A stretch of 28,169 nt of DNA from an uncultured Clostridia bacterium (GCA_947626705.1 CANQTJ010000001.1:1-28169), one strand, 5' to 3'. Counted from the stretch's first letter, positions 702-20,627 are shown. Numbers and translations are program-made. Notes: generated from the letters alone by a model not told the origin.

Positions 702-790
702 TAACATAAAAAAATTAAAAGTTTAACCAACTGGTTTATAGGTAAAACCTTTAAAAAACCTAAATATATTTACAAGGAATGTTAATAAAA

Positions 791-1981
791 ATGAAAATAT
801 TAGTTTTAAATTGTGGTAGTTCATCACTAAAATATCAATTAATAAATATGGATACAGAAGAGGTTATGGCATCAGGAAAATATGAAAGAATAGGAGAAAA
901 GGAAGCATTTATAACTCATAAAGTAAATGGACAAAAAATTGAAATAAAAAATCCAGCATATAATCATTCAGAAGCAATAGATTTTACTTTAAAACAATTT
1001 ACAAACCCAGAATATAAAGTAATAGATAGTTTAGACGAAATAAATGCAATAGGACATAGATTAGTACATGGAGGAGAAAAAATTTCAGAATCTGTTATTA
1101 TAGATGAAAAAGTTGAAGAAGTTTTAAAAGAATATACAGATTTAGCACCATTGCATAATCCAGCTTGTATATTAGGAATAAAAGCATGTAAAGAAGTAAT
1201 GCCAGGTAAACCAATGGTTGGAGTATTTGATACTGCGTTTCATCAAACAATGCCAAAAGACAAATATATATATCCAATTCCTTATGAATATTATAAAAAA
1301 TATGCAGTTAGAAAATACGGATTTCATGGCACTTCACACATGTTTGTTTCCCAAAGATTATCAGAAATTGAAAATATACCTTTAGAAGGAACAAAAATCG
1401 TTACATGCCATTTAGGACAAGGAGCAAGTGTATGTGCAATTAAAGATGGAAAGTCAATAGATACAAGTATGGGATTAACACCTCTTGGAGGACTACCAAT
1501 GGTAACAAGAAGTGGAGATTTAGACCCATCTGTTGTAACATATATAATGAAAAAAGAAAATTTAACAGCCCAACAAATGGAAGATATGTTAAATAAAAAA
1601 TCAGGTCTTTCAGCTATGTCAAATTTAGAACCAGACTTTAGAGTTATTGAAAATAAATCAAATGAAGGTGATGAATCAGCAAAATTAGCTATTGAAAATT
1701 TTAATTATGTAATTGCAAGCTATATAGCAAAATACGCAGTAGCAATGAAAGGAATTGACTATATAATATTTACAGGAGGAATTGGAGAAAATCAAATTAA
1801 TATCCGTAAAGGAATTTGCCAAAAATTAGCATTTATGGGAGTTGATTTAGATATTGAAGCTAATAATATAAGAAGTGAAGAAAAAGTTATATCTAAACCG
1901 GAATCAAAAATTAAAGTATATGTAATTCCTACAAATGAAGAATTAATGATAGCAAAAGAAACTTTAAGACTAATAAAATAA
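791..1981 (+). CDS. ackA: Acetate kinase, paralog 2
   Basis: Motifs: MKILVLNCGSSSLKY, GHRLVHGG, LAPLHNP, FDTAFHQT, YGFHGTSH, GGIGEN, PTNEE. AAGGA (774-778) abuts ATG 779, so ATG 791 is the more plausible start. Confidence 0.95.
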   Translation: MKILVLNCGSSSLKYQLINMDTEEVMASGKYERIGEKEAFITHKVNGQKIEIKNPAYNHSEAIDFTLKQFTNPEYKVIDSLDEINAIGHRLVHGGEKISESVIIDEKVEEVLKEYTDLAPLHNPACILGIKACKEVMPGKPMVGVFDTAFHQTMPKDKYIYPIPYEYYKKYAVRKYGFHGTSHMFVSQRLSEIENIPLEGTKIVTCHLGQGASVCAIKDGKSIDTSMGLTPLGGLPMVTRSGDLDPSVVTYIMKKENLTAQQMEDMLNKKSGLSAMSNLEPDFRVIENKSNEGDESAKLAIENFNYVIASYIAKYAVAMKGIDYIIFTGGIGENQINIRKGICQKLAFMGVDLDIEANNIRSEEKVISKPESKIKVYVIPTNEELMIAKETLRLIK

Positions 1982-2020: not shown

Positions 2021-3022
2021 ATGGAAGATAAAATTGATATTTTACTAACAACATATAATACAAAAATTGAATATTTAAGAATGCAAATAGATAGTATATT
2101 AAATCAAACTTATAAAAACTTTGAATTGATAATTTCAGATGATTGTTCAACAAATCAAGAAGTAAAAGAAGTTTTAAAAGAGTATGAAAAAAAAGATAAT
2201 AGAATAAAATTATATTTTCAGGAAAAAAATTTAGGGTATACTAAAAATTTTGAATTTGTATTAACAAAATCTAATGCAAATTATATATGCTTTAGTGACC
2301 ATGATGATATATGGTATTCTAATAAAGTAGAAAAAAGTATAAAAATATTAAAAGAAAAAAATGTTGATTTAGTATATTGTGATGCAAAACAAATAGATGA
2401 AAAAGGAAATGTAATACAAGAAAGCTATCTAAAATATAAAAATATGCCAATAATTAATGAAAAAAATAATAAAAAGATATTATCATTTTCAAGACATATA
2501 GCTATAGGTTGTAGTCAAATGTTTACAAGACAAGTAAAAGATATAATGATACCATTTACAGAAAATACTATCGCACATGATTGGATTTCTGTATATATTG
2601 CTGATAGATTAAAAGGCATTTATTGTATACAAGAACCACTGTTAGGATATAGATTACATTCCAATAATGCATTCGGAGGAAGAAATCTTAAACAAAACAT
2701 AAAAAAATGGAAAGAAGAAAATGGCAATACATATAAATCTTATTTAAAGTATAGACATAAAGTGATTGTTGAAACATATTTAGCTGGAGTATTAATGTGT
2801 AAAGATTATAGTTTAAAACTTAAGAATAATGAGCTTGAAAATTTGGAAAATGAAGTTATAGAGTATTATAAAAAATCACAAAAGCATAAAATTGTGTATT
2901 GGAATTTTATTAAGTATTTTAAATATTTATATTTTAAGGGAATGAAAAAAAGAAAAATTAAGGAAATAATGATATTGCACTTTCCACTTATAAGTTATTT
3001 TATTTATTTGATTTTAAACTAA
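2021..3022 (+). CDS. GT2 glycosyltransferase, RgpB/rhamnosyltransferase-like
   Basis: LLTTYN...QIDSILNQTY...IISDDCS, FSDHDDIW (DxD), AHDW, YRLHSNN; RBS AGAAGGA. Paralogous to 4643..5632. The donor sugar is inferred. Confidence 0.88.
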   Translation: MEDKIDILLTTYNTKIEYLRMQIDSILNQTYKNFELIISDDCSTNQEVKEVLKEYEKKDNRIKLYFQEKNLGYTKNFEFVLTKSNANYICFSDHDDIWYSNKVEKSIKILKEKNVDLVYCDAKQIDEKGNVIQESYLKYKNMPIINEKNNKKILSFSRHIAIGCSQMFTRQVKDIMIPFTENTIAHDWISVYIADRLKGIYCIQEPLLGYRLHSNNAFGGRNLKQNIKKWKEENGNTYKSYLKYRHKVIVETYLAGVLMCKDYSLKLKNNELENLENEVIEYYKKSQKHKIVYWNFIKYFKYLYFKGMKKRKIKEIMILHFPLISYFIYLILN

Positions 3023-3833: not shown

Positions 3834-4625
3834 ATGGAATTCATAAAATCACTATGGAAAAATAAAAAAATGGTATATAAATTAGGAAAAAGCGATTTTA
3901 AAAATAGATTTGCAAGTACAAGCCTAGGAAGTATATGGGGCTTTTTACAACCATTTGTATTTATGATGATGTATGTAATAGTATTTCAGTTCATATTTGG
4001 AATGGAAGGAGATGGAGGCTCACCTTATGTAGTATGGTTTTTACCAGGAATGGCAATATGGCAATGTTTAAATGACAGTATAATGAGTTCAAGTATGTCA
4101 ATAAGAAATTATAGTTACTTAGTAAAAAAAGTAGTATTTCCAGTAGATGTAATTCCAATAATATCACTAATAGGAAGTTCATTTGTAGCAATATTTTTAT
4201 TATTAGTATCAACAGTAGTATGTATGATATTTGGGTATACACCGAATTTTTTAATAATTTTATATGTTATTATTGCATTATATGCATTTATAATAGCATT
4301 TACAAGATTAACTTCTGCACTAACAACTTTAGTACCAGACTTTTCAAACTTATTAGGAATATTAATGCAACTTTTTTTCTGGGCAACGCCAGTAGTATGG
4401 AGTGTAGCACGACTTCAAAATCATCAATTAATTTTAAAAATAATACAATGTATGCCATTTAGTTATTTAGTAACAGCATTTAGACAAGCATTTATGGGCG
4501 GAAATATAATAACTGCAAATCATGGAATATATACAATAATATTTTGGATAATAACAATATTAATGTTTATATGGGGAAATCATGTATTTAAGAAAAATAA
4601 AAAAGATTTTGCAGATGTATTATAA
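3834..4625 (+). CDS. wzm: ABC-2 type polysaccharide exporter permease
   Basis: K.DFK.RF..T.LG..W..L.P N-terminus, YLVKKVVFP, FWATPVVW, about 6 TM segments; upstream of wzt. Confidence 0.92.
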   Translation: MEFIKSLWKNKKMVYKLGKSDFKNRFASTSLGSIWGFLQPFVFMMMYVIVFQFIFGMEGDGGSPYVVWFLPGMAIWQCLNDSIMSSSMSIRNYSYLVKKVVFPVDVIPIISLIGSSFVAIFLLLVSTVVCMIFGYTPNFLIILYVIIALYAFIIAFTRLTSALTTLVPDFSNLLGILMQLFFWATPVVWSVARLQNHQLILKIIQCMPFSYLVTAFRQAFMGGNIITANHGIYTIIFWIITILMFIWGNHVFKKNKKDFADVL

Positions 4626-4642: not shown

Positions 4643-5632
4643 ATGAATGAAATAATAGATATATTATTACCAACATATAATGGTGAAAAATATATAAAAG
4701 AGCAAATAGACAGTATATTAACACAGACATATAAAAATATACAATTAATAATTTCAGATGATTGTTCAAAAGATAATACAGTACAAATATTACAGCAATA
4801 TGAAAATGATAATAGGGTAAAAATATATAAACAAGAAAATAATTTAGGAGTAGTTAAAAATATAGAATTTTTACTAAAAAAAGTAGAACATAAATATTAT
4901 ATGCTATCAGACCAAGATGATGTATGGTTACCACAAAAAGTAGAAAAGACAATGGAAGCACTAATAAATGAAAATGCAGAATTAGCATTTGGCGATTTAG
5001 AAGTAGTAGACCAAAACTTAAACACTATTTATCCTTCATTTGGAGATTTTATGTTATTAAACAGAAAAATAAAAAAATATATAAATACAAATAGATTAAA
5101 TTATTTATATAATTGTGTAACAGGTTGCACATTATTAGCTAAAAAGGAATCAATACAAGAAATATTACCATTGCCACAAAAATCAAAATATTTGATACAT
5201 GACCATTGGATAGGTTTAATACTTAGTTTAAAGGGTAAAGTAGTATATATACCAGAAAAATATATAAAATATAGACAACACGAAAATAATCAAGTAGGAA
5301 CAGACAAAATATCACATGGATTTAAAGAGATAGAGCAAGTAAGAGAGTTGTTTATAAATGTAAAATTAGGTGTATTTGGAACATACATTGAAAATAATGA
5401 AAAATTTCCTGAAGAATTACAAAAATTAAATATACAGGGATATGAGTATTATCAAATGTTAGAGAAAAAAAAGAAATTTAATTTTAAAAATTGGGGAGTA
5501 TTTCATAAATTATATAAAACTGAAACATTTAGTTATTATGTTTTAAATTTTATAATATTGAATTTACCAGCAATAGGTAAGCCATTTTTTAAAATTAGAT
5601 ATAATGTTTTAAAAGCTTTAAAGAAAAGATAA
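4643..5632 (+). CDS. GT2 glycosyltransferase, RgpB/rhamnosyltransferase-like
   Basis: LLPTYNGEKYIKEQIDSIL, ISDDCS, LSDQDDVW, VTGCT, HDHW, YRQHENNQVG. Confidence 0.9.
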   Translation: MNEIIDILLPTYNGEKYIKEQIDSILTQTYKNIQLIISDDCSKDNTVQILQQYENDNRVKIYKQENNLGVVKNIEFLLKKVEHKYYMLSDQDDVWLPQKVEKTMEALINENAELAFGDLEVVDQNLNTIYPSFGDFMLLNRKIKKYINTNRLNYLYNCVTGCTLLAKKESIQEILPLPQKSKYLIHDHWIGLILSLKGKVVYIPEKYIKYRQHENNQVGTDKISHGFKEIEQVRELFINVKLGVFGTYIENNEKFPEELQKLNIQGYEYYQMLEKKKKFNFKNWGVFHKLYKTETFSYYVLNFIILNLPAIGKPFFKIRYNVLKALKKR

Positions 5633-5656
5633 TTTACAAAAAGCGAGAGGAGGAAA

Positions 5657-7090
5657 TTGTTAGATAAACTAACAGAGGCTATAATGGAAAAAGATATAGA
5701 TAATATAGATGGTAAAGATAATATGAATAAAGATAATATGAATAAAGATAATATGAATAAAGATAATATGAATAAAGATAATATAGATAAAAATAATATA
5801 GATAATAATAATATAGGTAATAAAAGTAATATACAAAATGTAATAGAGATAAAAAATGTTACTAAAGACTATAAAATGTATAAAAATAAAAAAGCGAGAT
5901 TATTAGAAGCGGTATTACCATTTTTTCAAAATCATGATACTTTTAGTGCTATAAAAAATTTGAATATAGAAATACATAAAGGAGAAGTATTAGGAATTTT
6001 AGGTAGAAATGGAGCAGGAAAATCTACATTATTAAAGATGATTACAGGAGTAGTAAGTCCAACCTCTGGTACTTTAACAGTAAATGGAAAAATAAGTTCA
6101 CTTTTAGAATTAGGAGCAGCATTTAATCCGGAGTTGACAGGAGAAGAAAATATTTATCAACATGGACAAGTTATGGGATTAACAAATGAGCAAATAGAAG
6201 CAACAAAACAAGACATAATAGACTTTGCAGATATTGGAGAACATTTATATCAACCAGTAAAAACATATTCTTCAGGAATGTTTGCAAGACTTGCTTTTGC
6301 TTGTGCAATAAATGTAGATCCAGATATATTAATAGTTGATGAAGTATTATCAGTAGGCGATATGGCATTTCAGTTAAAATGTTTTAAGAAGTTTCAACAA
6401 TTTAAAGAAAAAGGAAAAACAATATTATTTGTAACACATAATGTAGCAGATGTATTAGAAAATTGTAATAGAGCTATTATATTAAACTCAGGGGAAAAAA
6501 TATATGATGGAGAAGTAAAACAAGGTGTAGAAAAATATAAAAAATTAATAACAGGAATGTTAGAGCAAGACAAAACTAAAAAACAGTTAGATGAAAATTT
6601 AGAAGGAAAATGGAAGAAAAATTTTAATATTAATCCAGATATGATAACTTATGGAACAGGAGAAATAAAAATAGTAGATTATGGTATTTTTAATGAAAAA
6701 GATGAGCCACAACAAATTATATCTAGTAATCAAGAAGTAAAAATAAAAATGAAAGCAGAATTTTTTGAAGATATGGAATGTCCAACATTTTCAATTACAA
6801 TTAAAGATTTTCTGGGAAAAGAAATATGCGGAACAAATACAAATTTCTTAAAGATATATACTGGAAAATGTAAAAAAGGAGAAAAATATATATATGAGTT
6901 TAAACAAAAACTTATGTTAGCTCCTGGAAAGTACACATTATCTTTAAGTTGTAGTATATTTGATTTTAATGGAAATTTAGTTCCAATAAATAGAAATTAT
7001 GATGCTATAATATTTGAAGTTATATCTGATAAAAATATTGTAGGATATTATGATATTGATACAAAGGTTGATATAAAAAAGGTAGATTAG
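5657..7090 (+). CDS. wzt: Polysaccharide ABC exporter ATPase with C-terminal carbohydrate-binding (Wzt_C-like) domain
   Basis: Walker A GRNGAGKS, signature YSSGMFARL, Walker B ILIVDE, H-loop VTH; about 165-aa C-terminal beta-rich extension (...LAPGKYTLSLS...). Start is TTG 5657 or ATG 5684. Confidence 0.93.
   Translation: MLDKLTEAIMEKDIDNIDGKDNMNKDNMNKDNMNKDNMNKDNIDKNNIDNNNIGNKSNIQNVIEIKNVTKDYKMYKNKKARLLEAVLPFFQNHDTFSAIKNLNIEIHKGEVLGILGRNGAGKSTLLKMITGVVSPTSGTLTVNGKISSLLELGAAFNPELTGEENIYQHGQVMGLTNEQIEATKQDIIDFADIGEHLYQPVKTYSSGMFARLAFACAINVDPDILIVDEVLSVGDMAFQLKCFKKFQQFKEKGKTILFVTHNVADVLENCNRAIILNSGEKIYDGEVKQGVEKYKKLITGMLEQDKTKKQLDENLEGKWKKNFNINPDMITYGTGEIKIVDYGIFNEKDEPQQIISSNQEVKIKMKAEFFEDMECPTFSITIKDFLGKEICGTNTNFLKIYTGKCKKGEKYIYEFKQKLMLAPGKYTLSLSCSIFDFNGNLVPINRNYDAIIFEVISDKNIVGYYDIDTKVDIKKVD
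5714..5818 (+). repeat. In-frame 15-bp tandem repeat (KDNMN)n at the wzt N-terminus
   Basis: AAAGATAATATGAAT x4 perfect (5714-5773), then three degenerate units (KDNID, KNNID, NNNIG). Confidence 0.95.
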
Positions 7091-7155
7091 TTATAATATT
7101 TTATATATTTAGATAGTATTTTTTCATTTATAATTTTTTAATAAGGTTAGTATTA

Positions 7156-9819
7156 TTGAATTCTAAAGATATGAAGGGAATGTTATTAAATATGGATAAT
7201 AATTCAGAAATGCATTTATTTATATTATGGGAAAAATCTTTATATAAAAAAGATGAAATAATTTCACAAATAAAGGAAAAATTTAAAATAATAAAAATCT
7301 ATAATGTAAAATGGTCTGATAAATATTTTATAAGCAATTTGTCGAGATTTTATGGAACAAATTTATTAGACTGTAAAGCAAAAGCTGAACATTGTGGTAC
7401 AGGCGAATTCCTTTTAATAATAGTAAAAGATGAAAATCCTATATATGAAAATAGAAATACAAGCAAAGGGATAAAAAACTTAAATATAAATATGTTTGAT
7501 AGCAAAGAAAAATTTAGAGAAATCACAGGTGGTGGTCATAAGGTTCATGCTACAAATGATGAGATAGAAACAAACCATGATATTACTTTATTATTAGGTA
7601 TTTCTTTAAATGATTTTAAAAATCAAAATAGTGAAGAATGGAATGGGGAGATAGAAAATCTAGAAAAAGATTTATTTGGATATAATGGTTGGGATAATGT
7701 GCAACAAATGTTTTATGCATTAAATAATTGTACCAAATATGCTATATTAAGAAATTATGAAGGTTTACCAGAAGAAATATATATAAATGAGCATAATGAT
7801 ATAGATTTAATATGTGAATCAAAAGAAAATTGTGCTTTAATATTAAATGCAGAAAAAGTTTTTCCTCAAGATTATAGAATTCATTATAGAGCAAAAGTAA
7901 AAGATAAATATGCAAATTTTGATTTAAGATATATAGGAGATAATTATTATTGTGAAAAATTAGAAACTAACATATTAAATAATAGAGTATATAATGATAA
8001 AGGATTTTTTGTATTAAGTGATGAAGATTATTTTTACACATTATTATATCACGCAATAATTCATAAAAGGATATTTAAAGAAGATTATAAAAATAGATTA
8101 GCAAATATGAATGATACAAATATAATAGATGAAAATTCAAAATTAGAAGATATGATAAAAATCTTAAAAAATTGGCTATCAGTTAATAAATATTTAATAA
8201 CAATACCAAATGATAAATCTGTTGACTTTAATATACAAAATGCTAAACAATTTAGACCACTATTGCAGTTAGAACAAACTAATAAAAAATTACAGCAATT
8301 TAATGATAATATAATAAAATGGTATCCATTTAAAAAATCAAAAAACATATTATTGGTAGGAGAAAATGAAATAATCGAAAAATACTTAAAAACGAAAACA
8401 GAAAATTTAATAGTATTAAGTAGATTTGAAAAAACAAATAAAGATTTAACTAACTATGAATTTGATTATATTTTAATATATGGAATAGAAAATTATAAAG
8501 ATTCAATTTTTGATATAAGAAAATATTTAAATGATGGTGGAAAGCTTATTATAATAGGAGATAACACCTTTGGAATTAACAATTGGAGTAATTATAGTAT
8601 TAATTTAGAATCTATAAAATTAGAAAATAATAATTTTGATAAAACAACTATAAGCAAAGTAAGAGATAGATTAATAGAAAACGGTCTAAATAATACAAAT
8701 ACATTTTATTGTTTTCCAAATTATAAAGAAACAGAAGTATTAATAAACGAAAATCATAATATTGAAGATTCTCAAATAGATAGATATAATCAAAATATAG
8801 AATTAAAACAAATAAAAGTATTTGATGAAATAAATATATTAAAAAAGATAATACGAGAACAACCAAAAATGCTAGAGTTTTTTACTAACTCATATTTTAT
8901 TGAAGCTTCAAAAAATAGCATAGACACAGATATTAAATATGTATCTTACAATAATTGTAGAAACGAAAAATATAAACTTATAACTTTATTAAAAGAGAAT
9001 ATAGTAGAAAAAATATCTGCAAATGAAGAATCTAAAGAACATTTAGGTAATATGAAACAAATAATACAAGATATAAAAAATATGAATACTGATAAAATAC
9101 AAGTATTAGACTATGAAGAAAATGGAAAAATCTTTAGTAAACTAATAAAAAATTATAAAACATTAGATGTAATATTAGCAGAATATTATAATAATTTTGA
9201 AGAAATACAAAAAATATTAAATGATTTAAAAAACATATTAATACAAAATTCAGTTAATTATGAAGAATGTAAAAATAATATAGATAAATTAGGACAACCA
9301 GAAGAACTTTTAAATAAACTTCATTATATGCCTAAAGCTTTTTGGGATATGATATCTAAAAATTGTTTTTACATTGAAAATAAATTTGTATTTTTCGACC
9401 AAGAATGGGTAAAAGAATATTTACCTGTTGAATTTATAATATATCGTTCTGTTATAAATTCTTATGATTTAATAAAAAAGATTGATGTAGATAAATTGCT
9501 AGAAAAGTTGGAAATATTGCAATATAAAGAATATTTCCAAAAAATAGATGAAAGCATAAGAAAAGAAATATTAAATCAAGAAGTATTTGAAGAAATGTAT
9601 AAAACAGAAACAAAAGGAGTAGATAACCTTATTAATGAAAATGCAATGTATAAAAATTATATAGACAAATTAGAAAATGAAGTTATAAGACAAGTAAATG
9701 AAGATAATTCTAAAAAACAAGAGTATATAATTGCATTAGAAAATAGGGTTAAACAATTAGAGGAAGTAAATAGTAAAAATGAAAAAATTATAAAAAAAAT
9801 ATTGTTTTGGAAGAGGTAG
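7156..9819 (+). CDS. Multidomain putative glycan chain-terminating/capping protein: NDK-like, nucleotidyltransferase-like, degenerate class I methyltransferase, kinase-like, coiled coil
   Basis: VHATND (aa130-135); YAILRN...DIDL (D215/D217); NIIKWYPF...FDYILIYGIE...LNDGGKLII; WDMISKN (D731,N736) and FDQEW (D748); heptad-rich C-terminus. The real start may be ATG 7192 (RBS AAGGGA). Confidence 0.65.
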   Translation: MNSKDMKGMLLNMDNNSEMHLFILWEKSLYKKDEIISQIKEKFKIIKIYNVKWSDKYFISNLSRFYGTNLLDCKAKAEHCGTGEFLLIIVKDENPIYENRNTSKGIKNLNINMFDSKEKFREITGGGHKVHATNDEIETNHDITLLLGISLNDFKNQNSEEWNGEIENLEKDLFGYNGWDNVQQMFYALNNCTKYAILRNYEGLPEEIYINEHNDIDLICESKENCALILNAEKVFPQDYRIHYRAKVKDKYANFDLRYIGDNYYCEKLETNILNNRVYNDKGFFVLSDEDYFYTLLYHAIIHKRIFKEDYKNRLANMNDTNIIDENSKLEDMIKILKNWLSVNKYLITIPNDKSVDFNIQNAKQFRPLLQLEQTNKKLQQFNDNIIKWYPFKKSKNILLVGENEIIEKYLKTKTENLIVLSRFEKTNKDLTNYEFDYILIYGIENYKDSIFDIRKYLNDGGKLIIIGDNTFGINNWSNYSINLESIKLENNNFDKTTISKVRDRLIENGLNNTNTFYCFPNYKETEVLINENHNIEDSQIDRYNQNIELKQIKVFDEINILKKIIREQPKMLEFFTNSYFIEASKNSIDTDIKYVSYNNCRNEKYKLITLLKENIVEKISANEESKEHLGNMKQIIQDIKNMNTDKIQVLDYEENGKIFSKLIKNYKTLDVILAEYYNNFEEIQKILNDLKNILIQNSVNYEECKNNIDKLGQPEELLNKLHYMPKAFWDMISKNCFYIENKFVFFDQEWVKEYLPVEFIIYRSVINSYDLIKKIDVDKLLEKLEILQYKEYFQKIDESIRKEILNQEVFEEMYKTETKGVDNLINENAMYKNYIDKLENEVIRQVNEDNSKKQEYIIALENRVKQLEEVNSKNEKIIKKILFWKR

Positions 9820-9822
9820 AAA

Positions 9823-11505
9823 ATGTTTATAAATAAAATTTTGCCACAAGGTTCAAAAAGAAGAGAAATAGTAAAAAAAATATATGTAAAATATTTTCAA
9901 AAATATAGTGAGGAAGAAAGAATATATTTAAAATGGATAAAAAATAATGAGCCAGATAATAAACAATTAGAAGAACAAAAAAATATAGAATTTAAAATAA
10001 AGCCTAAAATCAGTATAATTGTGCCAGTATACAATACACCTGAAAATTTTTTTAAAGAACTAGTTGAAAGTTTGCAAAAACAGACATATTCTAATTGGGA
10101 ATTATGTTTAGCAGATGGTTCGCCTGAACCAATAAAATATATGCAAGAATATCCAAAAATAGATAAAAGAATAAAATATAAGGTAATTGGAGAGAATAAA
10201 GGAATTTCAGGCAATAGTAATGAAGCATTAACATTAGTTACAGGAGATTTTATTGGTTTGCTTGACCATGATGACTTATTACCACCTTTTTCGTTATATG
10301 AAGTGGTAAAGGCAATAAATGAAAAGCCAGAAGCAGAATTTATATATTCTGATGAAGATAAATTAGAAACTTTAAAAGGACCAAGATATGGAGTATTCTT
10401 TAAGCCAGACTTTTCACCATATACATTAAATAGTGCAAACTATATTTGCCATTTTAGTATATTTAAAAAAGAATTGATGGACAAGCTAGGTGGATTTAGA
10501 AGTGAATATGATGGAAGTCAAGATTTTGATATAGTAGCAAGAGCAACTGAATTAACTCAAAATGTAGTGCATATTCCAAAGGTATTATACCATTGGAGAG
10601 CACATAAAAATTCAACTGCTCAAAATTCAGATTCAAAACCTTATGCATTTGAAGTAGGAAAAAAGGTTATAAAAGACCATATAAAAAGGAAACTTGATAC
10701 ATATGTAGAAGTTACAGATGGATTAACACCAGGAAGTTACGAGATAAAATATAAGGTAAAAGGGAATCCAAAAGTTAGCATAATAGTTGATGGAACAAAA
10801 ATTCAAATAGAAAAAATTATAGAAAAAGTAAAAATATCAACATATTCAAATTATGAAATAATTGCTATTTCAGATACAGAAATAGAAGGTCTAAAAACTA
10901 TAAAACCAACAGGAAATACATTTGTAGATTATAATGAAGCTGTAACACAAGCTGAAGGTCAGTATTTTATGATAGTAGATGAAAACTTAATTAAAATAGA
11001 CAAACCATCATATATTGAAGATTTAGTTGGAGTATGTCAAGATGAAGATGTTGGAATAGTAGGTACAAAATTATACAATAAAAAAGAAACAATAGAACAT
11101 TGCGGAATAGTTATAGGAATGAATGGTATGGGAGATTTTTTATATAAAGGAGCTCCAAAAGATATAGGAACATATATGCAGAGGCTTTTAATAATACATA
11201 ATGTATCGTGTGTATATGTAAAATATGCAATGATTGATAAAGAACTATTTATGAAAATAAATAAATTTACAAATGATTTTACAGGTTTAGCTGTAAGTAT
11301 TGATACTTGTCTTAAAATTTTAGATTTACATAAACAAGTTGTAATAAATCCTATAATTTCAATATGTGTAGAAAAAATTTCACAAGTAGAAAAAGTTGAT
11401 GAAGAAAAGTTACAAGAAAAATGGAAAAATCAATACAAAAATGGAGACATTTATTTTAGTCCAAATTTAAGTAAATCAAATACTGGATTAAGTTTAAATA
11501 TCTGA
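9823..11505 (+). CDS. GT2 glycosyltransferase with one intact and one degenerate GT-A domain
   Basis: ISIIVPVYNT, LLDHDDLL, YSDEDK, FKPDFSP, DGSQDFD, LYHWRAH; the second domain has VDENL where this family usually has NNDTE. Confidence 0.85.
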   Translation: MFINKILPQGSKRREIVKKIYVKYFQKYSEEERIYLKWIKNNEPDNKQLEEQKNIEFKIKPKISIIVPVYNTPENFFKELVESLQKQTYSNWELCLADGSPEPIKYMQEYPKIDKRIKYKVIGENKGISGNSNEALTLVTGDFIGLLDHDDLLPPFSLYEVVKAINEKPEAEFIYSDEDKLETLKGPRYGVFFKPDFSPYTLNSANYICHFSIFKKELMDKLGGFRSEYDGSQDFDIVARATELTQNVVHIPKVLYHWRAHKNSTAQNSDSKPYAFEVGKKVIKDHIKRKLDTYVEVTDGLTPGSYEIKYKVKGNPKVSIIVDGTKIQIEKIIEKVKISTYSNYEIIAISDTEIEGLKTIKPTGNTFVDYNEAVTQAEGQYFMIVDENLIKIDKPSYIEDLVGVCQDEDVGIVGTKLYNKKETIEHCGIVIGMNGMGDFLYKGAPKDIGTYMQRLLIIHNVSCVYVKYAMIDKELFMKINKFTNDFTGLAVSIDTCLKILDLHKQVVINPIISICVEKISQVEKVDEEKLQEKWKNQYKNGDIYFSPNLSKSNTGLSLNI

Positions 11506-11537
11506 ATTTGAAAATTTAGAAAGGAATATATATTAAA

Positions 11538-13754
11538 ATGAAAGAAGTAGATGTAATAGTTCCAATATATAATGCTTATGAATATACAGAAGAATGTATA
11601 AAGAGCATTATAAAAAATACTAATTTAAATAAAAACACATTAGTATTAATAAATGATAAAAGCCCAGATGAAAAAATACTACCAATGTTACAAAAATATC
11701 AAAAAGAAAATCAAGATAAAAGAATAACAGTTTTAGATAACGAAGAAAATTTAGGGTTTGTAAAAACAGTAAATAAAGGTATTCAATATTCTGAGAATGA
11801 TGTAATTTTATTAAATAGCGATACAGAAGTAACAAAAAATTGGATAGAAAAAATACAAGAATGTGCGTATTCAAATAAATATATAGCTACTGTAACACCA
11901 TTAACAAATAATGGAACAATATGCTCAGTTCCTAATTTTGGAGTAGATAATGAAATTCCAGAAAGATTTACATTAGAAGAATATGCAGAAATGATAGAAA
12001 AAGTTTCTAAAAGTAGATATCCAGAGCTTACAACTGGAAATGGCTTTTGCATGTATATAAAAAGAGATGTTATAAAAGAATTAGGTTTATTTGATGCAGA
12101 AACATTTGAAAAAGGATATGGAGAAGAAAACGATTTTTGCTATAGAGCATTAGACCATGGATATATAAATGTATTATGTGATAATACATTTATATATCAT
12201 AAAGGAACGCAAAGTTTTAAAAAAGAGAATATGACTGCTTCAAGAGCAGCACTTATAGAAGAACATATGGAACTATTAAGAAAAAAGCATCCAATATATG
12301 TACAAAAAACTGATAATTTTATAGCAAACAATCCATTAATAGATATACAAGAAAATATAAATTTAAATATATTATTATACAATAAAAAAAGAGTATTATA
12401 TTTAATAAATGAATGGGAAGAAAATATGGAGATGACAGGTGGAGCATCATTACATTTAAAAGATATAATATTATCAAATTCTAAAAATAATATTGCAAGT
12501 TTTGTGTTAGCACCAGATAAATTTGATTTATCAAGATTTAAATTATATTTGTATTCAGATAAATATTCAAGAGAAATATCAAATTATAAAACAGGAATAA
12601 GACAATATGGTCAAATAGTATATACAGATAATTCATATAAAGAAATGGTAGAAAATATATTAGATAGCTTTAAAATAGATATATTACATGTTCATCATTT
12701 CTTATTCCAAACTTTTGATGCAATTGAAATAGCAAAGCAAAGGAATATATATTCTATTATTACATTACACGATTTATATATGATTTGTCCATCAATAAAT
12801 ATGGTATATAAAGACAGATATTGTGAATATGATAAAAATAAAGATTGCACTAAATGTTTAAAGGCAAGATATGGAGTAAATGATAATGTATTGAATAATT
12901 GGCAAAAGACCTGCTTTGAAGTATTAAAACAATTTGATAAAATAATAGTACCATCAGAAAACACTAAAAAAATATTTAAAAATATATATAAAGATTTAGA
13001 AACTGAAGTAGTAGAGCATGGAGTAACAGTTGTTGAAACAAAAGCAAAAGAAAGAAAATCTAAAGATTTTAATGTAGCATTTGTAGGAGCAATGGCAATC
13101 CATAAAGGAAGTAATATACTAAAAGATTTAGTAATAAATAATAAAAATACAAATATAAAGATTCATTTATTTGGAAAATCAGAAGATAAAAAATTAACTA
13201 AAAATACTTCAAACTATATAAATCATGGGCAATATAAAAGGGGAGAATTACCACAATTATTAATAGACAATGATATAGATTTAGTGTGTATTTTTGCACC
13301 ATGGCCAGAAACGTATTCATATACTTTAACAGAAAGTTATATGGCAAAAGTACCAATACTTACATTTGATATTGGAGCAGTAGGAGATAGAGTAAAAAAA
13401 GATAATTTAGGTTGGGTAATAGATTTTGATGTAAATTCTTCAAAAATACTTGAAAAAATAGAAGAAATAAGTAATAATAATGAAGAATATAAAAATAAGA
13501 AAGATAATTTTAAAACATATAAATTTAAATTATTAGAAGAAATGCTAAAATATTATGACAATTTATATGAACATATTGAGATAAAAAAACAACTTGCAGA
13601 TGTTTATAATTTTATGAATTATAGAACAAAATCAAAAGAGTTTGATTTTAATGAATATCAAGCCAATTATGGACATGTTGTAAATAAATATGAAAAATTA
13701 AGAAGCTCTTTAATTTGGAAAGTAGCTAAAAAAGTCAAATCAAAATTTAAATAA
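11538..13754 (+). CDS. Bifunctional GT2 + GT4-like glycosyltransferase (putative glycan polymerase)
   Basis: N-terminal GT2 (VIVPIYN, NDKSPD, LLNSDTEV, GYGEENDF); C-terminal GT-B (LHVHH, TLHD, PWPETYSYTLTES); basic amphipathic tail SSLIWKVAKKVK. Confidence 0.88.
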   Translation: MKEVDVIVPIYNAYEYTEECIKSIIKNTNLNKNTLVLINDKSPDEKILPMLQKYQKENQDKRITVLDNEENLGFVKTVNKGIQYSENDVILLNSDTEVTKNWIEKIQECAYSNKYIATVTPLTNNGTICSVPNFGVDNEIPERFTLEEYAEMIEKVSKSRYPELTTGNGFCMYIKRDVIKELGLFDAETFEKGYGEENDFCYRALDHGYINVLCDNTFIYHKGTQSFKKENMTASRAALIEEHMELLRKKHPIYVQKTDNFIANNPLIDIQENINLNILLYNKKRVLYLINEWEENMEMTGGASLHLKDIILSNSKNNIASFVLAPDKFDLSRFKLYLYSDKYSREISNYKTGIRQYGQIVYTDNSYKEMVENILDSFKIDILHVHHFLFQTFDAIEIAKQRNIYSIITLHDLYMICPSINMVYKDRYCEYDKNKDCTKCLKARYGVNDNVLNNWQKTCFEVLKQFDKIIVPSENTKKIFKNIYKDLETEVVEHGVTVVETKAKERKSKDFNVAFVGAMAIHKGSNILKDLVINNKNTNIKIHLFGKSEDKKLTKNTSNYINHGQYKRGELPQLLIDNDIDLVCIFAPWPETYSYTLTESYMAKVPILTFDIGAVGDRVKKDNLGWVIDFDVNSSKILEKIEEISNNNEEYKNKKDNFKTYKFKLLEEMLKYYDNLYEHIEIKKQLADVYNFMNYRTKSKEFDFNEYQANYGHVVNKYEKLRSSLIWKVAKKVKSKFK

Positions 13755-13767
13755 AAAAGGATAGAAT

Positions 13768-15300
13768 ATGAAAGAAAAGTTAGGAAAAGTATATTTTAAA
13801 ATAGTATTTTTAGTAGAAATAATATTGTCATTATTAATGGGAATAGCTACATTTAGAGTATTATATAAAGTTTATGATATGGACTATATTTCTGTTCCTA
13901 ATTTAACAGTAGCAATAATATGTGCAATAATATTATTAGTAATAATAATTTGTAATGTAATAAGATATAAAAAAAAGGTAGAAAAGTTATTTTTAACATT
14001 TATAATACCTATAGGAATAATGTTTATTATTTTATTACCAATTAATTGTGTGCCAGATGAAGACTCACATACTTACAAAACATATGATTTATCAGTAGGA
14101 CATATAATAACACCATTTGGAGAAAACAAAGAAGGCAATATATATGTACCAAAACAATTTGTAGATTTTTATGAGCAACATAAAGATATAAATTATTCTG
14201 TTATACATGAATATTTATCAAAAGACACTAATTATAAAGAATTAGTACCAGTTCAAACAATAGCAAAGACATATTTTTTTATAAACTATATGCCTGGAGC
14301 AATAGTATTTATAATATGCAGATTATTAAACATAAATATAATATTAGCATGTTATATTATAAGATTGGTAAACTTTATTTTATCAATTATAATAGGATAT
14401 TATTGTATAAAAGTTATACCATTTGGTAAGTTAGTATTAGCGATATATATGTTTTTACCAATGTATATACAACAAATTGCATCAATTTCAGCAGATGCAA
14501 TTATAAATAGTATATCAATATTATTCATTGTATATAATTTAAAATTATTATGGCAAAAGGAAGATATGCGACCGATACAAAGAATGATATATTATGTACT
14601 AGCATTAAGTATTTCAGTATGTAAATATGTTTATTTTCCACTAACATTAATGAGTTTATTATTAATAAAAAATAAAAATATAAGTAAAATAAATAAAAAT
14701 AAATTGATAACTATATCATTAAGTTTATCTGTAGTTGTAGCAATTTTTTGGTTTGTTTTTTCACAACAATATATTGATACAAGGCAAATAATTATAGAAA
14801 GAAATGTAAAACCAATACAACAAATAACATATATATTACAAAAACCAGTTGAATATACAAAAATATTTTTTAATACTTTTGAAGAAAAAGGTGCATATTA
14901 TGTAAAAACATTTTTGGGTTCTGAATTAGGATTGTTAAATATAAAAATACCAGAAATATATATAATAATATATATGATTTCATTATCAATATTGCCATTT
15001 TTAGAGAAAAATGAAAAATCTTTAACTAAAATGCAAAAATGGTTAATGATAGTTATTTCTTTAATTTTAATTTTATTAGTAGAAACTGGTTTATACATTA
15101 CATGGTCTGGATTAAAGACGTCAATTATAGAGGGAGTACAAGGAAGATACTTTATTCCTGTATTTATATTAATACTATTATCTATAATAAATAAAAATAA
15201 TAAAATTGAAATAAAAAATTTAGGGATAAAATATTTTATTTTATATTTTGTTTTAAATATACTGACTTTGACAAAAATATATACAATATTTATACAATAA
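13768..15300 (+). CDS. DUF2142-like polytopic membrane protein (putative GT-C glycosyltransferase)
   Basis: PDEDSH motif in the first extracytoplasmic loop, SADA, K..Y, GVQGRYFIP; about 11-12 hydrophobic segments. Confidence 0.75.
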   Translation: MKEKLGKVYFKIVFLVEIILSLLMGIATFRVLYKVYDMDYISVPNLTVAIICAIILLVIIICNVIRYKKKVEKLFLTFIIPIGIMFIILLPINCVPDEDSHTYKTYDLSVGHIITPFGENKEGNIYVPKQFVDFYEQHKDINYSVIHEYLSKDTNYKELVPVQTIAKTYFFINYMPGAIVFIICRLLNINIILACYIIRLVNFILSIIIGYYCIKVIPFGKLVLAIYMFLPMYIQQIASISADAIINSISILFIVYNLKLLWQKEDMRPIQRMIYYVLALSISVCKYVYFPLTLMSLLLIKNKNISKINKNKLITISLSLSVVVAIFWFVFSQQYIDTRQIIIERNVKPIQQITYILQKPVEYTKIFFNTFEEKGAYYVKTFLGSELGLLNIKIPEIYIIIYMISLSILPFLEKNEKSLTKMQKWLMIVISLILILLVETGLYITWSGLKTSIIEGVQGRYFIPVFILILLSIINKNNKIEIKNLGIKYFILYFVLNILTLTKIYTIFIQ

Positions 15301-15312
15301 AAGGAGAGACTA

Positions 15313-17430
15313 ATGGAAAAAATGAGAGAATTTTTAAAGAAGGGAAATAATACAAAAATAAAAATTATAATTGCTTTAATAATATCTATAATAATTTCAG
15401 TAATATATACAGTAACAAGACCAATATTTGTAATAGACAGAATATTTCTTGTAGATGCTATATTAATGTTTATATCATTACATTTTATTATAAAATTAGA
15501 AGTAATGTATAATTTTATATATAAATATAGATATTATATAGCATTAATAATATTTGCAATAGAAGTAATATTTGAATATTCAGGCTCTTCCATAGGAGTA
15601 TATAATGATATATTACAGGGAGAATCAACGCAAAAATATTTTTCTCCTGTGTTAGGAAAATATAGAAGTATAAGGTCTGATGAGTGGGTAGTAAATACAC
15701 CAATATTTACTTCACAAGCAATAGATACAGATAGTAAATTTGCTTATTATAATGATAACTTAAGAGGAATTAATACAGATATGTTTTCAATAGTAGCACC
15801 AGCTGTATTAGATATATTGACAATAGCGAAACCATTTAATATAGGATATTTATTATTAGGTGCGTCAAGAGGGTTGTCAGTACTATGGGCAGGAAAATGG
15901 ATAGCACTTATGTTAATTGCATTTGAATTTTGTATGCTTATTACAGACAAAAAAAAGTTTGTTTCATTATGTGGAATGTTACTCATTGCTTTTTCCGCTT
16001 CTACAGCTTGGTGGAATATGACGGATTATTATATATGGGGAATGTTAGCTTTAATACTAGTAGATAAATATTTAAAATCAGATAAACTGAAAACTAAAAT
16101 AATATGTGCAATAGGAATATTTATTAGTGCAGTTTCTTATGTATTTATAATGTATCCAGCGTGGGAAGTAGCATATATATTTATATATATGGCAATATTT
16201 ATTACTTTATGTATTAAAAATAGAAAAATATATAAAATATATAAAAAAGATATATTAATAATATTTTTAGTAATTTTATCAATAGCTGGAATAGGTATGA
16301 GATATTTATATATGTCAAAAGATGCTTTAAATGCAACGCTTAATACAGATTATCCAGGAAGTAGATTTGAAATTGGTGGAAATGGTAAAAAAGTAGTATT
16401 TTCTTATGTATATAGTTTCTTATTTCCATATAATGACTTAGATAATCCTTGCGAATTTGCTGGAATGACATCATTTTATCCATTACCAATGATATTAGCT
16501 ATAATATATTTAATAAGAAATAAAGATAGAAAAAAACATTTTGCATTTTTTATACCATTACTAATTGTTTCATTACTATTTTCTATATTTACATTATTTG
16601 AAACAAATGAAACATTTGCAAAACTAACATTACTATATATGATACCAGGAAGAAGGTTAGCAATACCATTAGGATTTACACAAATATTAATGCTTATATA
16701 TCTAATCTCAATTACAGATAAAAATACAAAAATAATGAAAGATAATACAGCTAAAATTATTGCAATATTTTCTAGCATAATAATAATGAGTTTTGCAATG
16801 CAAACTGCGCCAAATATTTTTACAGGAGGATTACGAGCATATTGTATAGGTTTATTATTATTGATATTTTTATATTTAATATTAACAATAAATAATGAAA
16901 AAAATAAAAAGATTTTATTAGTAAGTTTAGCAGGAATTTCAATAATAACAGGAGCAACAGTAAATCCTATACAAAAAGGTATATCAGTATTAATAGATAA
17001 ACCATTAGCAAAAGAAATAAAAAGCATAGTATCTAGTGATACAGAAAATAATTTATGGATAACAGATAATACAGTATTTTATATGCCAAATTACTTACTT
17101 GCAAGTGGTGCAAAAGTTTTAAATTCAACAAATATATATCCTAATTTCGAATTGTTTAAAACAGTACTAGGTGAAGATGCACAAAAACAAGAAAATAGGC
17201 AAATATATAATAGATATGCTCATTTAACTATGGAAATAACAAATAATGAAAATAAAGTTGAATTAATATATCAAGATAGTATTAAATTAAAATTAACACC
17301 AGAAAAAGTAAAAGAATTAGGAATTAAGTACATTGTATCAACAAGAGATGTAGAAGAATTTGATACACAAAAAGTAGACTTTGAAGAAATATATAGTCAG
17401 CAAGGTGTGTCAATATTTAGAGTAAATTAA
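15313..17430 (+). CDS. Large polytopic membrane protein, putative GT-C-type glycan-decorating transferase
   Basis: RSIRSDEW acidic motif in an early extracytoplasmic loop, YPAW, T.YPG.R, many TM segments and a soluble C-terminal domain. GT-C status is inferred. Confidence 0.55.
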   Translation: MEKMREFLKKGNNTKIKIIIALIISIIISVIYTVTRPIFVIDRIFLVDAILMFISLHFIIKLEVMYNFIYKYRYYIALIIFAIEVIFEYSGSSIGVYNDILQGESTQKYFSPVLGKYRSIRSDEWVVNTPIFTSQAIDTDSKFAYYNDNLRGINTDMFSIVAPAVLDILTIAKPFNIGYLLLGASRGLSVLWAGKWIALMLIAFEFCMLITDKKKFVSLCGMLLIAFSASTAWWNMTDYYIWGMLALILVDKYLKSDKLKTKIICAIGIFISAVSYVFIMYPAWEVAYIFIYMAIFITLCIKNRKIYKIYKKDILIIFLVILSIAGIGMRYLYMSKDALNATLNTDYPGSRFEIGGNGKKVVFSYVYSFLFPYNDLDNPCEFAGMTSFYPLPMILAIIYLIRNKDRKKHFAFFIPLLIVSLLFSIFTLFETNETFAKLTLLYMIPGRRLAIPLGFTQILMLIYLISITDKNTKIMKDNTAKIIAIFSSIIIMSFAMQTAPNIFTGGLRAYCIGLLLLIFLYLILTINNEKNKKILLVSLAGISIITGATVNPIQKGISVLIDKPLAKEIKSIVSSDTENNLWITDNTVFYMPNYLLASGAKVLNSTNIYPNFELFKTVLGEDAQKQENRQIYNRYAHLTMEITNNENKVELIYQDSIKLKLTPEKVKELGIKYIVSTRDVEEFDTQKVDFEEIYSQQGVSIFRVN

Positions 17431-17443
17431 AGAGGAGAAATTA

Positions 17444-18175
17444 ATGGAAAAAATCTTATTAATAATACCAGCTTATAATGAAGAAGAAAACGTGTTAAAA
17501 GTTTATAATATGATAAAAGAATATAATGAAAAATCTGAGCAAAAATTAGATTATATATTTATTAATGATGGTTCTAAAGATAACACATTAAAAATTTTAG
17601 AAGATAATAAATTAAATCATATAAACTTAATTCATAATCTTGGAATTGGAGGAGCAGTACAAACAGGATATAAATATGCTTATGAGAATAATTATAATAT
17701 TGCAATTCAATTTGATGGAGATGGACAACATGATATAAACTATGTAGATAATATTTGTAAACCATTAATTGAAGGACAAGCTGATATGTGTATAGGAACA
17801 AGATATTTAGATAAAACATCAAGCGAATTTCAATCTACATTTATGAGAAGATTAGGTTCAAATATAATATCAACATTTATAAAAATTTTATGTAGAAAAA
17901 AAATTACTGACCCAACATCAGGTTTTAGGGCTGTAAATAGAACGGTTATACAAGAATTTGCTAAAAATTATCCTATAGAATATCCAGAACCAGAATCAAC
18001 AGTTTGTTTATTAGTTAATAAGTATATAATACAAGAAGTACCTGTTAGTATGAACGAAAGAACAGGTGGAGTTTCTTCAATAAGACTTTGGAAATCAATT
18101 GATTATATGGTTAAAGTAGTATTAGCAATAATAATAGATAGTATAAGTTTTAGAATAAAAAGGAGGAAAAAATAG
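17444..18175 (+). CDS. DPM1/GacI-like GT2 polyprenyl-phosphate glycosyltransferase
   Basis: IIPAYNEE, INDGSKD, NLGIGGAVQTG, QFDGDGQH, DPTSGFRA, R..G.SSI; followed by a DUF2304-like gene. Confidence 0.88.
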   Translation: MEKILLIIPAYNEEENVLKVYNMIKEYNEKSEQKLDYIFINDGSKDNTLKILEDNKLNHINLIHNLGIGGAVQTGYKYAYENNYNIAIQFDGDGQHDINYVDNICKPLIEGQADMCIGTRYLDKTSSEFQSTFMRRLGSNIISTFIKILCRKKITDPTSGFRAVNRTVIQEFAKNYPIEYPEPESTVCLLVNKYIIQEVPVSMNERTGGVSSIRLWKSIDYMVKVVLAIIIDSISFRIKRRKK

Positions 18176-18534
18176 TGCAAATAAAATTAAAAATAGCTTT
18201 GATTATTATTTTGTTAATATATATTTTTTGCATACTTAAAGCTGTAAAAAGAAAAAATATGAGAATTAATTATCTAATATTTTGGTCGATAACTGGCTTA
18301 TTACTTATTGTAGCATTATGTATTCCTAATTTAGTAGAAAATATATCAAGATTACTAGGATTTGAAATGCCAATAAATATGATATTTAGTGTAGCAATAT
18401 TTGTTATATTATATTTAATATTTAACTTAACGACTCTTATTTCTCAAGAACAAAATAAAAATGTATTGTTAATACAAGAAATATCAATATTAAAGCAACG
18501 TATAGAGGAATTAGAAAAAAATAAAGAGAATTAA
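18175..18534 (+). CDS. DUF2304/GacJ-like small membrane protein
   Basis: GTG overlaps the upstream TAG; three TM segments, ...L.LGFE.P.N.IF..., C-terminal coiled coil LIQEISIL. Confidence 0.85.
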   Translation: MQIKLKIALIIILLIYIFCILKAVKRKNMRINYLIFWSITGLLLIVALCIPNLVENISRLLGFEMPINMIFSVAIFVILYLIFNLTTLISQEQNKNVLLIQEISILKQRIEELEKNKEN

Positions 18535-18588
18535 ATATAATTTATAAACAAAAAAGTTTTATAAAATATCATAGAATGGAGAAAGAAA

Positions 18589-19632: not shown

Positions 19633-19663
19633 AATATATTCTTGTGAAAGGAACGAGATAAAA

Positions 19664-20038: not shown

Positions 20039-20068
20039 TAATAAGTACCTTAGAGAGGAATATAAAAA

Positions 20069-20626: not shown

Positions 20627-20627
20627 A

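Follow-up and report, generated by a model that had tools for sequence, protein, structure and literature searches.

A predicted chain terminator with an unannotated front module next to a carbohydrate-binding Wzt in an uncultured Clostridia bacterium

Which protein decides that a polysaccharide chain is finished, and how is this decision passed on to the exporter? The question is raised by a stretch of 28,169 nucleotides from an uncultured Clostridia bacterium (GCA_947626705.1 CANQTJ010000001.1:1-28169; "the window" is this stretch at its whole length), in which the gene of a Wzt with a C-terminal carbohydrate-binding module (CBM) is followed by the gene of an 887-aa protein and then by two glycosyltransferase (GT) genes, a GT2 and a GT2+GT4. 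In many bacteria, O antigens, S-layer glycans and polysaccharides of the wall receive their length through chain termination that is coupled to export gated by a CBM. A first-pass annotation of the window had described this gene order, and its coordinates and gene content proved correct. From sequence, structure models and analogy with characterised systems, we consider it probable that the 887-aa protein is the chain terminator and length ruler of the locus, in which a kinase domain would cap the terminal sugar, an N-terminal module would elaborate the cap and the CBM of Wzt would read it.

Wzt possesses an ABC ATPase domain (~aa 64-316; Pfam ABC_tran, E 1.1e-22) followed by a Wzt_C beta-sandwich (Pfam E 2.5e-35), the features by which CBM-bearing Wzt proteins are recognized, and its top sequence match in the PDB is the full-length CBM-bearing Wzt of Aquifex (8dku/7k2t, E 3e-73). 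By analogy, a CBM on Wzt implies the existence of a terminal glycan signal. The gene order with Wzm, CBM-bearing Wzt and polymerase GTs is the context of the known terminator class, and the position of wzm upstream of wzt is kept across related loci. The locus synteny is retained in dozens of species-level genomes, therefore the gene arrangement is not due to chance. The best explanation for the product of the locus is a cell-surface glycan made by the ABC-transporter-dependent route.

The 887-aa open reading frame (ORF) has no Pfam match (E <= 10, noise aside), no NCBIfam match and, with phmmer, no sequence match in the PDB. Its full-length relatives, found by homologue search and aligned in A1, are 38-65% identical, and their starts make ATG 7192 the likely real start of the protein. 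Homologue searches divide the protein into an N-module (aa 16-365) and a C-module (aa 377-887), the latter of which is also found as a stand-alone protein of ~490-540 aa. Both halves were modelled separately by AlphaFold, the N-module on alignment A2 with 56 diverse sequences (predicted local distance difference test score, pLDDT, 93.8) and the C-module on alignment A3 (pLDDT 89.5). The two models and fold searches resolve five parts, which agrees with the five modules of the first-pass annotation: a nucleoside diphosphate kinase (NDK)-like and a nucleotidyltransferase (NTase)-like domain in the N-module, followed by a methyltransferase (MTase) fold, a kinase-like domain and a long helix in the C-module (Table 1).

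Sequence and models point to the C-terminal half as the probable core of the chain terminator. Its first part, module 3, has a class I MTase fold with degenerate S-adenosylmethionine (SAM) motifs, and is matched to the structure 3cc8 both by VIA (Z 11.6) and by a search of profile A1 against the PDB (E 6e-5). Relatives with Pfam MTase matches (PF13489, PF08241, PF08242) read LEIGANFGEIT or IGGGCGAIT at motif I, and there V-x-S-x-E and a segment of ~25 residues follow. The window protein, in contrast, reads LLVGENE, lacks both the strand-2 acid and the segment, and has no Pfam MTase match. The earlier impression of a dead MTase is supported by the loss of these elements, and module 3 is probably an inactive pseudo-enzyme or scaffold. 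A motif test found a degenerate MTase in 38 of 61 distinct C-modules, which indicates that degeneracy is a common and retained state.

Two further observations concern the MTase (related loci are designated by L numbers). Four loci without N-module (L119, L124, L143, L144) encode an extra, stand-alone paralogue of ~370 aa, which matches only the MTase part of the C-module and is situated directly before a C-module with a degenerate MTase motif. The gene of the SAM synthetase MetK is found within the terminator loci L025, L031 and L026, and also in L049 and L143. We rejected MetK as a marker of an active MTase because it accompanies intact and degenerate MTases alike (the terminator MTase of L026 looks degenerate).

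Directly after the MTase follows a kinase fold with a catalytic Asp (module 4), which is likewise a feature of the terminator class. Foldseek assigns it to the APH(2'') aminoglycoside kinases, i.e., to the aminoglycoside phosphotransferase (APH) type, with E 2e-5 and probability 1.0. D731, N736, D748, E750, W751 and R764 are invariant and K619 nearly so. The kinase-like fold of aa ~590-800, on which the earlier proposal of a capping protein depended, is thereby recovered. The C-terminal module 5 is modelled as one continuous 65-residue helix (446-510 of the C-module model) with a basic and aromatic tail at its end, and is a candidate coiled-coil ruler.

The sole characterised enzyme of such layout is ORF6 of Klebsiella pneumoniae O7, hereafter ORF6(O7). 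Kelly et al. (J Biol Chem 2024; PMC11231755) demonstrated by biochemistry that its N-terminal MTase and a cryptic kinase similar to AmiN/APH (D441) add a methyl-phosphate cap to the chain. The capping domains lie at the opposite end of the coiled coil from two GT2 modules (PMC11231755). We liken the C-module to this enzyme by layout: both comprise, in this order, a class I MTase fold, a sequence-cryptic APH/AmiN-like kinase with catalytic Asp and a coiled coil (a candidate one in the window protein), and both proteins are encoded alongside Wzm and a CBM-bearing Wzt. The window protein differs in its degenerate MTase, in that no internal CBM domain is seen in it, in its polymerase GT2, which is encoded by a separate gene, in the 360-aa NDK-like/NTase-like module in front, and in its host, a Gram-positive-type Clostridia represented by a metagenome-assembled genome (MAG).

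A common logic is also shared with WbdD of E. coli O9a and K. pneumoniae O3 (PDB 4azs and others; PMC3482155), which combines MTase, kinase, coiled-coil ruler and a C-terminal membrane end. The polymerase of that system is a protein of its own, and the CBM of its Wzt recognizes the cap. The kinase of the window protein is of APH type whereas that of WbdD is of eukaryotic type, and the window protein further differs in a probably inactive MTase, a much shorter coil and the extra N-module. Geobacillus stearothermophilus provides a Gram-positive example, an S-layer glycan that depends on an ABC transporter and whose chain is terminated by a modifying enzyme adjoining polymerase GTs. Its WsaE combines a terminating methyltransferase with rhamnosyltransferases and caps by O-methylation, and is not known to possess a kinase, NDK-like or NTase-like module. 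Judged by modelled folds and by analogy, the C-terminal half of the window protein adds a member, from a host group new to it, to an established class of terminators, and with the NDK-like/NTase-like module fused in front it forms a terminator variant that is likewise new. The earlier statement that no characterised terminator has this architecture is consequently to be narrowed: the layout of the C-terminal half matches the ORF6(O7) class (PMC11231755), and the front modules are uncharacterised.

The genomic distribution of the C-module points in the same direction. It is present in 35 of 251 genomes, belonging to 10 of 50 genera, of the GTDB family of the window. The first-pass annotation had suggested an architecture search for co-occurrence with CBM-bearing wzt, and such a gene is indeed adjacent in 58 of the 61 distinct C-module loci, the stretches of the remaining three ending early. 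One genus has the C-module within larger proteins of 1190-1276 aa with the succession MTase-like, kinase, coiled coil (~aa 535-620), GT2 and GT2, which is the layout of ORF6(O7) with its two fused GT2. The GT2-GT2 portion of these fusions shares 56% identity (E 9e-117) with the separate 560-aa GT2 of the window, and at the sequence level the fusion links the terminator with the polymerase. Between coil and GT2-GT2 the fusions in L130, L133 and L137 display a hinge motif, Ser-Trp-Lys-Ile-Thr-x-Pro-Leu-Arg, which also occurs at the end of many unfused terminators but which the window protein lacks.

The N-module can be separated from the C-module and has no annotation. It matches 2239 representative clusters (50% identity) from many phyla, 573 of them at E <= 1e-30, and is found as a stand-alone protein (355-420 aa), in fusions with GT2 or with Hanks-type kinases (~620 aa), and within giant proteins. 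Its relatives in UniProt and AlphaFold DB are all named "Uncharacterized protein", and its clusters in the ESM Atlas have no Pfam family. The presence of two extra enzyme-like modules in front of the candidate terminator half, as stated earlier, is real. Along its full length, module 1 superimposes on NDKs (VIA Z 12.9; 124/143 residues with a root-mean-square deviation, rmsd, of 2.4 A), and its best Foldseek matches are all NDKs (probability 1.0). Invariant are W25, E26, K76, K117, R121, H131, T133, E138 and H141 (columns of A2, except for E26, which is invariant in A1). As in NDK (PF00334), the invariant His on the central strand is followed by a Thr and by a conserved Glu in the next helix, and the strand carrying H131 matches the phospho-His strand, the aligned ranges being compatible, in a range-level comparison, with His 117 of bacterial NDK. 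Unlike NDK, module 1 has Trp-Glu (W25, E26) in place of the Lys-Pro-Asp after strand 1, the region before the His strand is formed by a hairpin, a helix and a GGG loop, and no significant profile match is found. The query has no Pfam match to the NDK family, PF00334 is detected in one of the 56 relatives at E 0.001, and profile A2 finds no match in the PDB. An hhalign comparison of A2 with two genuine NDKs of related genomes was not significant either (probability 0.3%). Sequence therefore does not support NDK family membership, and our claim concerns the fold only.

Module 2 has a Pol-beta-type NTase-like fold with a helical lobe, and VIA ranks MenT1 (Z 8.2), MenT4 (7.2), ANT(2'') (6.5), LnuA (6.2) and TglT (6.1) as its matches. 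With the hydroxyl-directed, PF14907-like NTases MenT1/MenT4, ANT(2'')-Ia and LnuA it shares the fold over 126-158 residues, a DxD plus a third Asp, and the C-terminal helical lobe. R199, N200, D215, D217, D256, H299 and K304 are invariant in the 56 sequences, so that the two-plus-one carboxylates of NTases (DxD ... D) are present as D215, D217 and D256. The Gly-Ser/Gly motif before the DxD strand is absent and its position is taken by the invariant R199 and N200; also unlike the enzymes named, module 2 is always preceded by the NDK-like domain. PF14907 itself gives weak matches in 2 of the 56 relatives.

The clear NDK fold with an invariant His on the phospho-His strand raises the alternative that the N-module is a nucleotide-handling helper that leaves the glycan untouched, e.g., regenerating NTP locally via phospho-His for a GTP-using APH(2'')-like kinase, or serving as a regulatory nucleotide sensor, in which case the cap would be a plain phosphate. 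APH(2'') enzymes, the closest kinase structures of module 4, are GTP-using, and a canonical NDK (PF00334) was found neither in the source genome nor in the 18 same-genus genomes searched, and in 2 of 31 related genomes. However, the N-module has the invariant W25 and E26 at the place, after strand 1, where NDKs carry their signature for nucleotide binding, the full DxD...D set of the NTase domain argues for catalysis, and the N-module is common in Proteobacteria, for which ndk is present in the control genomes of E. coli and Caulobacter (controls, not N-module-bearing genomes). A mere helper is also difficult to reconcile with the co-variation of CBM type and N-module presence and with the mutual exclusion of the N-module and another enzyme in its slot, both described below. 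We regard this explanation as very unlikely.

The surroundings of the N-module were compared in 72 species-level loci obtained from a profile scan of genome contigs with a smaller alignment (A6). In every gut Clostridia locus the N-module is encoded immediately downstream of wzt, either fused or split. The C-module follows in fused form in the window and in L001, L007, L013, L026, L028, L032 and L038, more often as the next gene, and in split loci a GT2 or SAM synthetase gene sometimes lies between them. Outside Clostridia the partner of the N-module, either in the same protein or encoded next to it, is a Hanks-type kinase in which the HRD and DFG motifs have their classic form, and at least 90% of N-modules have a kinase-like partner. 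In several other phyla the gene of N-module plus Pkinase directly follows wzt. There Wzt_C is recognized by Pfam in L009 and L010, by a custom hidden Markov model (HMM) in L050 and L058, where wzt lies upstream of the N-module+Pkinase gene, and inferred from the length of the ATPase ORF alone (409-429 aa) in L056, L066, L075 and L084. An hhalign comparison of A3 with A5, the alignment of the Hanks-type partners, superimposes D731..N736 on HRD..N and D748 on DFG; despite this consistent alignment of motifs, we rejected a kinship of both kinases as the match is too weak (E 0.029, probability 1.7%).

The five-module fusion, proposed earlier as a system, is thus present in the window and some relatives, but most relatives split N- and C-module, and most C-module loci of the family lack the N-module, which is present in just 2 of 32 further C-module loci. 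Of 61 genomes from the genus of the window, 8 possess it, in a total of three architectures, and this patchy distribution fits a serotype-like variation of the surface glycan. In loci without N-module (N-, as opposed to N+) the slot between wzt and the C-module is occupied by a ~300-aa protein of the metallo-beta-lactamase (MBL) fold, by a GT2 or by nothing. N-module and MBL-fold protein are never found together in 61 loci (30/0 vs 15/16).

The CBM of Wzt co-varies with the presence of the N-module. Among 27 N+ and 23 N- Wzt sequences, the mean pairwise identity of the ATPase domain is 0.78 for N+/N+ pairs, 0.77 for N-/N- pairs and 0.75 for mixed pairs, and that of the CBM is 0.67, 0.58 and 0.45, respectively. 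The pattern is retained at an ATPase-domain identity of 0.80-0.85, where CBM identities are 0.73 (N+/N+), 0.65 (N-/N-) and 0.46 (N+/N-). In the CBM tree, all N+ sequences and one N- sequence form one split with a support of 99. Such co-variation is what cap-specific recognition predicts.

Several observations, however, weigh against the interpretation of the 887-aa protein as a terminator whose cap is read by the CBM. The co-variation could alternatively reflect shared ancestry: either Wzt tree shows no more than 2-3 changes of the N-module state, and an approximately unbiased (AU) test on the ATPase-domain data does not reject N+ monophyly (p-AU 0.215). For the latter reason there is no support for a cassette of CBM and N-module that recombined with several ATPase backgrounds, and we discarded this idea. 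Nor does the CBM follow the state of the MTase, as within bins of ATPase identity the CBM identity is equal in same-state and different-state pairs. The heptad periodicity of the helix is moderate only, with an occupancy of 0.75 in two 28-residue windows and 0.53 overall, a signal that 102 of 2000 shuffles equalled; of the ~60-aa coiled coil described earlier the 65-residue helix is modelled, and its coiled-coil signal is correspondingly moderate. The coiled coil of WbdD is, moreover, much longer than this helix. The NDK-like domain has no detectable NDK sequence signature. WbdD gives no sequence match with profile A1 (E <= 10) and is outside the top 50 structural matches, and the profile of Hanks-type partners did not single it out either, therefore we rejected WbdD as the nearest relative. 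What persists of the WbdD-like terminator of the first-pass annotation is its position, its architecture and its conserved catalytic residues, but no detectable sequence similarity to WbdD.

Finally, pairs of an N-module and a small Hanks-type kinase are located in a Wza-Wzc-Wzx (Wzy-type) exopolysaccharide (EPS) locus of Colwellia sp. C1TZA3 (L086) and, with no glycan genes nearby, in Wukongibacter sp. M2B1 (L085). These contexts indicate that the N-module+kinase pair is not intrinsically a terminator. Both are cultured strains. The Colwellia pair, in a locus type where terminal capping plays no role, and the many decoration genes downstream in the window favour a further possibility, namely that the 887-aa protein decorates internal residues or side chains, e.g., with phosphate-containing substituents, and that chain length is set otherwise. 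This is contradicted by the tight adjacency to CBM-bearing Wzt in 58 of 61 loci, by the coil, which in relatives is fused to GT2 in the hallmark layout of terminators (PMC11231755), and by the terminal signal that a CBM on Wzt implies. Among the explanations considered here we rate internal decoration as the least probable.

Under the preferred reading of the 887-aa protein as chain terminator, we infer the chemical steps, acceptor, donor and ruler function from the observed architecture, folds, residues, synteny, GT2 fusion and CBM co-variation as follows. Anchored close to the membrane by the C-terminal helix with its basic tail, and next to the polymerase formed by GT2 and GT2+GT4, the protein would keep its catalytic heads at a fixed distance from the membrane. 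Once the growing chain reaches the heads, the APH-type kinase would phosphorylate the non-reducing terminal sugar. As the MTase domain would be a non-catalytic scaffold, the terminal phosphate would be left unmethylated. The N-module may elaborate the terminus afterwards or modify it in parallel, the likeliest product being a phosphodiester or nucleotidyl-type cap. Binding of the finished cap by the Wzt CBM would then license export.

A phosphodiester-type cap has indirect support from the resemblance of the NTase domain to ANT(2'') and LnuA, which nucleotidylate sugar-like hydroxyls, from the fusion of the MTase+kinase unit elsewhere to proteins annotated as LicD or cytidylyltransferase-like (automatic names), from the MBL fold of the alternative slot occupant and from the co-variation of CBM type and slot occupant. 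The MBL fold includes phosphodiesterases. It is possible, and we propose this more tentatively than the terminator function as such, that N-module and kinase install a new non-reducing-end cap (nucleotidyl, pyrophosphate or another phosphodiester) which is read by a dedicated CBM type, that the MBL enzyme provides an alternative cap with a CBM type of its own, and that the N-module represents a widespread new glycan-modifying family.

The same fusions, however, are also compatible with a donor pathway similar to that of Lic proteins, in which a small head group, an alcohol or an amine, is phosphorylated by the APH-type domain in the manner of choline or ethanolamine kinases, the N-module activates the phosphorylated head group and transfers it to the glycan terminus, and the CBM reads it; an intact MTase, where present, would modify the head group. 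In AlphaFold DB (AFDB) clusters the MTase+kinase unit is fused to a "Phosphorylcholine metabolism protein LicD" (A0A1M7Y847) and to a "Cytidyltransferase-like domain-containing protein" (A0A0E4HFS4), both named by automatic annotation, which limits their weight. Phosphoethanolamine N-methyltransferases are among the top Foldseek matches of the MTase, although VIA places generic MTases above them. Choline kinases have the APH fold, and the phosphocholine esterase Pce has the MBL fold of the alternative slot occupant. Yet the window contains no cytidylyltransferase, LicD (PF04991) has no Pfam match in the 887-aa protein (E <= 10) and is not among the families matched by its 56 relatives, and the kinase of ORF6(O7), the only characterised protein of this layout, acts on the glycan itself. 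We consider a head-group pathway unlikely.

To our knowledge, few cap types have been characterised, namely methyl, phosphate, methyl-phosphate and beta-Kdo. The present locus family constitutes a natural experiment, in which a shared set of ATPase domain, kinase-coil terminator and polymerase occurs with exchangeable accessories (NDK-like/NTase-like module, MBL-fold protein or neither) and with CBM variants to match. Should new caps be defined by the accessory enzymes, this would extend the known chemistry of glycan termination, provide the first function for a large unannotated, kinase-paired enzyme family and supply new cap/CBM pairs for glycoengineering. It would likewise describe a surface-glycan diversity in abundant uncultured gut Clostridia that is patchy even within one genus.

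Table 1. Features of the window and of related loci. Positions of related loci are preceded by the locus number; residues are those of the encoded protein.
Feature	Nucleotides	Residues	Strand	Basis or remark
Acetate kinase gene 1	3-701		+	clipped by window edge; tandem copy upstream of glycan locus
Acetate kinase gene 2	779-1981		+	directly upstream of glycan locus
GT2	2021-3022		+	
Wzm, ABC-2 permease of glycan exporter	3834-4625		+	Pfam ABC2_membrane E 1.2e-12
GT2 between wzm and wzt	4643-5632		+	Pfam Glycos_transf_2 E 4.6e-31
GGAGG, similar to a ribosome-binding site, before wzt	5649-5653			
Wzt	5657-7090		+	ABC_tran + Wzt_C
Alternative possible start of wzt (ATG)	5685			
15-bp tandem array in wzt 5' end	5692-5820			8.4 copies, 88% matches
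CBM of Wzt	6644-7057	330-467		Wzt_C, PF14524
887-aa five-module ORF, candidate terminator	7156-9819		+	ORF list
Module 1, NDK-like fold	7198-7638	15-161	+	VIA, Foldseek
Module 2, Pol-beta-type NTase-like fold and helical lobe	7693-8253	180-366	+	VIA
Module 3, class I MTase fold, degenerate SAM motifs	8299-8919	382-588	+	VIA, profile search
Module 4, APH-type protein-kinase-like domain	8926-9618	~591-821	+	Foldseek, conserved residues
Module 5, single long helix, candidate coiled-coil ruler	9619-9813	822-886	+	AlphaFold
GT2, 560 aa, polymerase candidate	9823-11505		+	Pfam GT2 E 4.5e-27
GT2+GT4, 738 aa, second polymerase candidate	11538-13754		+	Pfam GT2 E 9.6e-21, Glycos_transf_1 E 3.3e-11, Glyco_transf_4 E 2.3e-9
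Downstream block: DUF2142, DUF7657/DUF7654, GT2, DUF2304, GT2, EamA-like 124-aa protein, DUF6056	13768-21989			
MBL-fold protein, ~300 aa, between wzt and C-module	L005 5861-6736; L118, L122, L123, L125, L132, L140			Pfam Lactamase_B
Terminator-polymerase fusions, 1190-1276 aa	L130, L133, L137			genomes G115, G204, G244
MetK gene within terminator loci	L025 9169-10356; L031 3363-4526; L026 3880-5013			
N-module and Hanks-type kinase pair, Colwellia sp. C1TZA3	L086 10001-11954			
N-module and Hanks-type kinase pair, Wukongibacter sp. M2B1	L085 10001-11816			

The source assembly comprises 1.46 Mb in 165 contigs, with a completeness estimate of 89%, and its nearest named relatives are "Clostridia bacterium" MAGs from gut and rumen. 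The G+C content of the window is ~23%, and the listed ORFs of at least 200 aa are on the + strand without exception. The GT2 gene in the interval between wzm and wzt has an equivalent position in L001 and L007, and the GT2+GT4 gene is syntenic in L001 and L005. The block of membrane proteins and small GT2s downstream of the polymerase candidates looks like extracytoplasmic glycan decoration machinery; partial synteny of this block is observed in L001 and L007.

The 5' end of wzt, which is preceded by a GGAGG motif and has a second possible start codon, contains a tandem array of a 15-bp repeat. The array codes for a low-complexity extension of ~50 aa, rich in Lys, Asp, Asn and Met, which is N-terminal to the ATPase domain and absent from relatives. 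As the repeat unit is in frame, a change in copy number would alter the length of Wzt and keep the reading frame.

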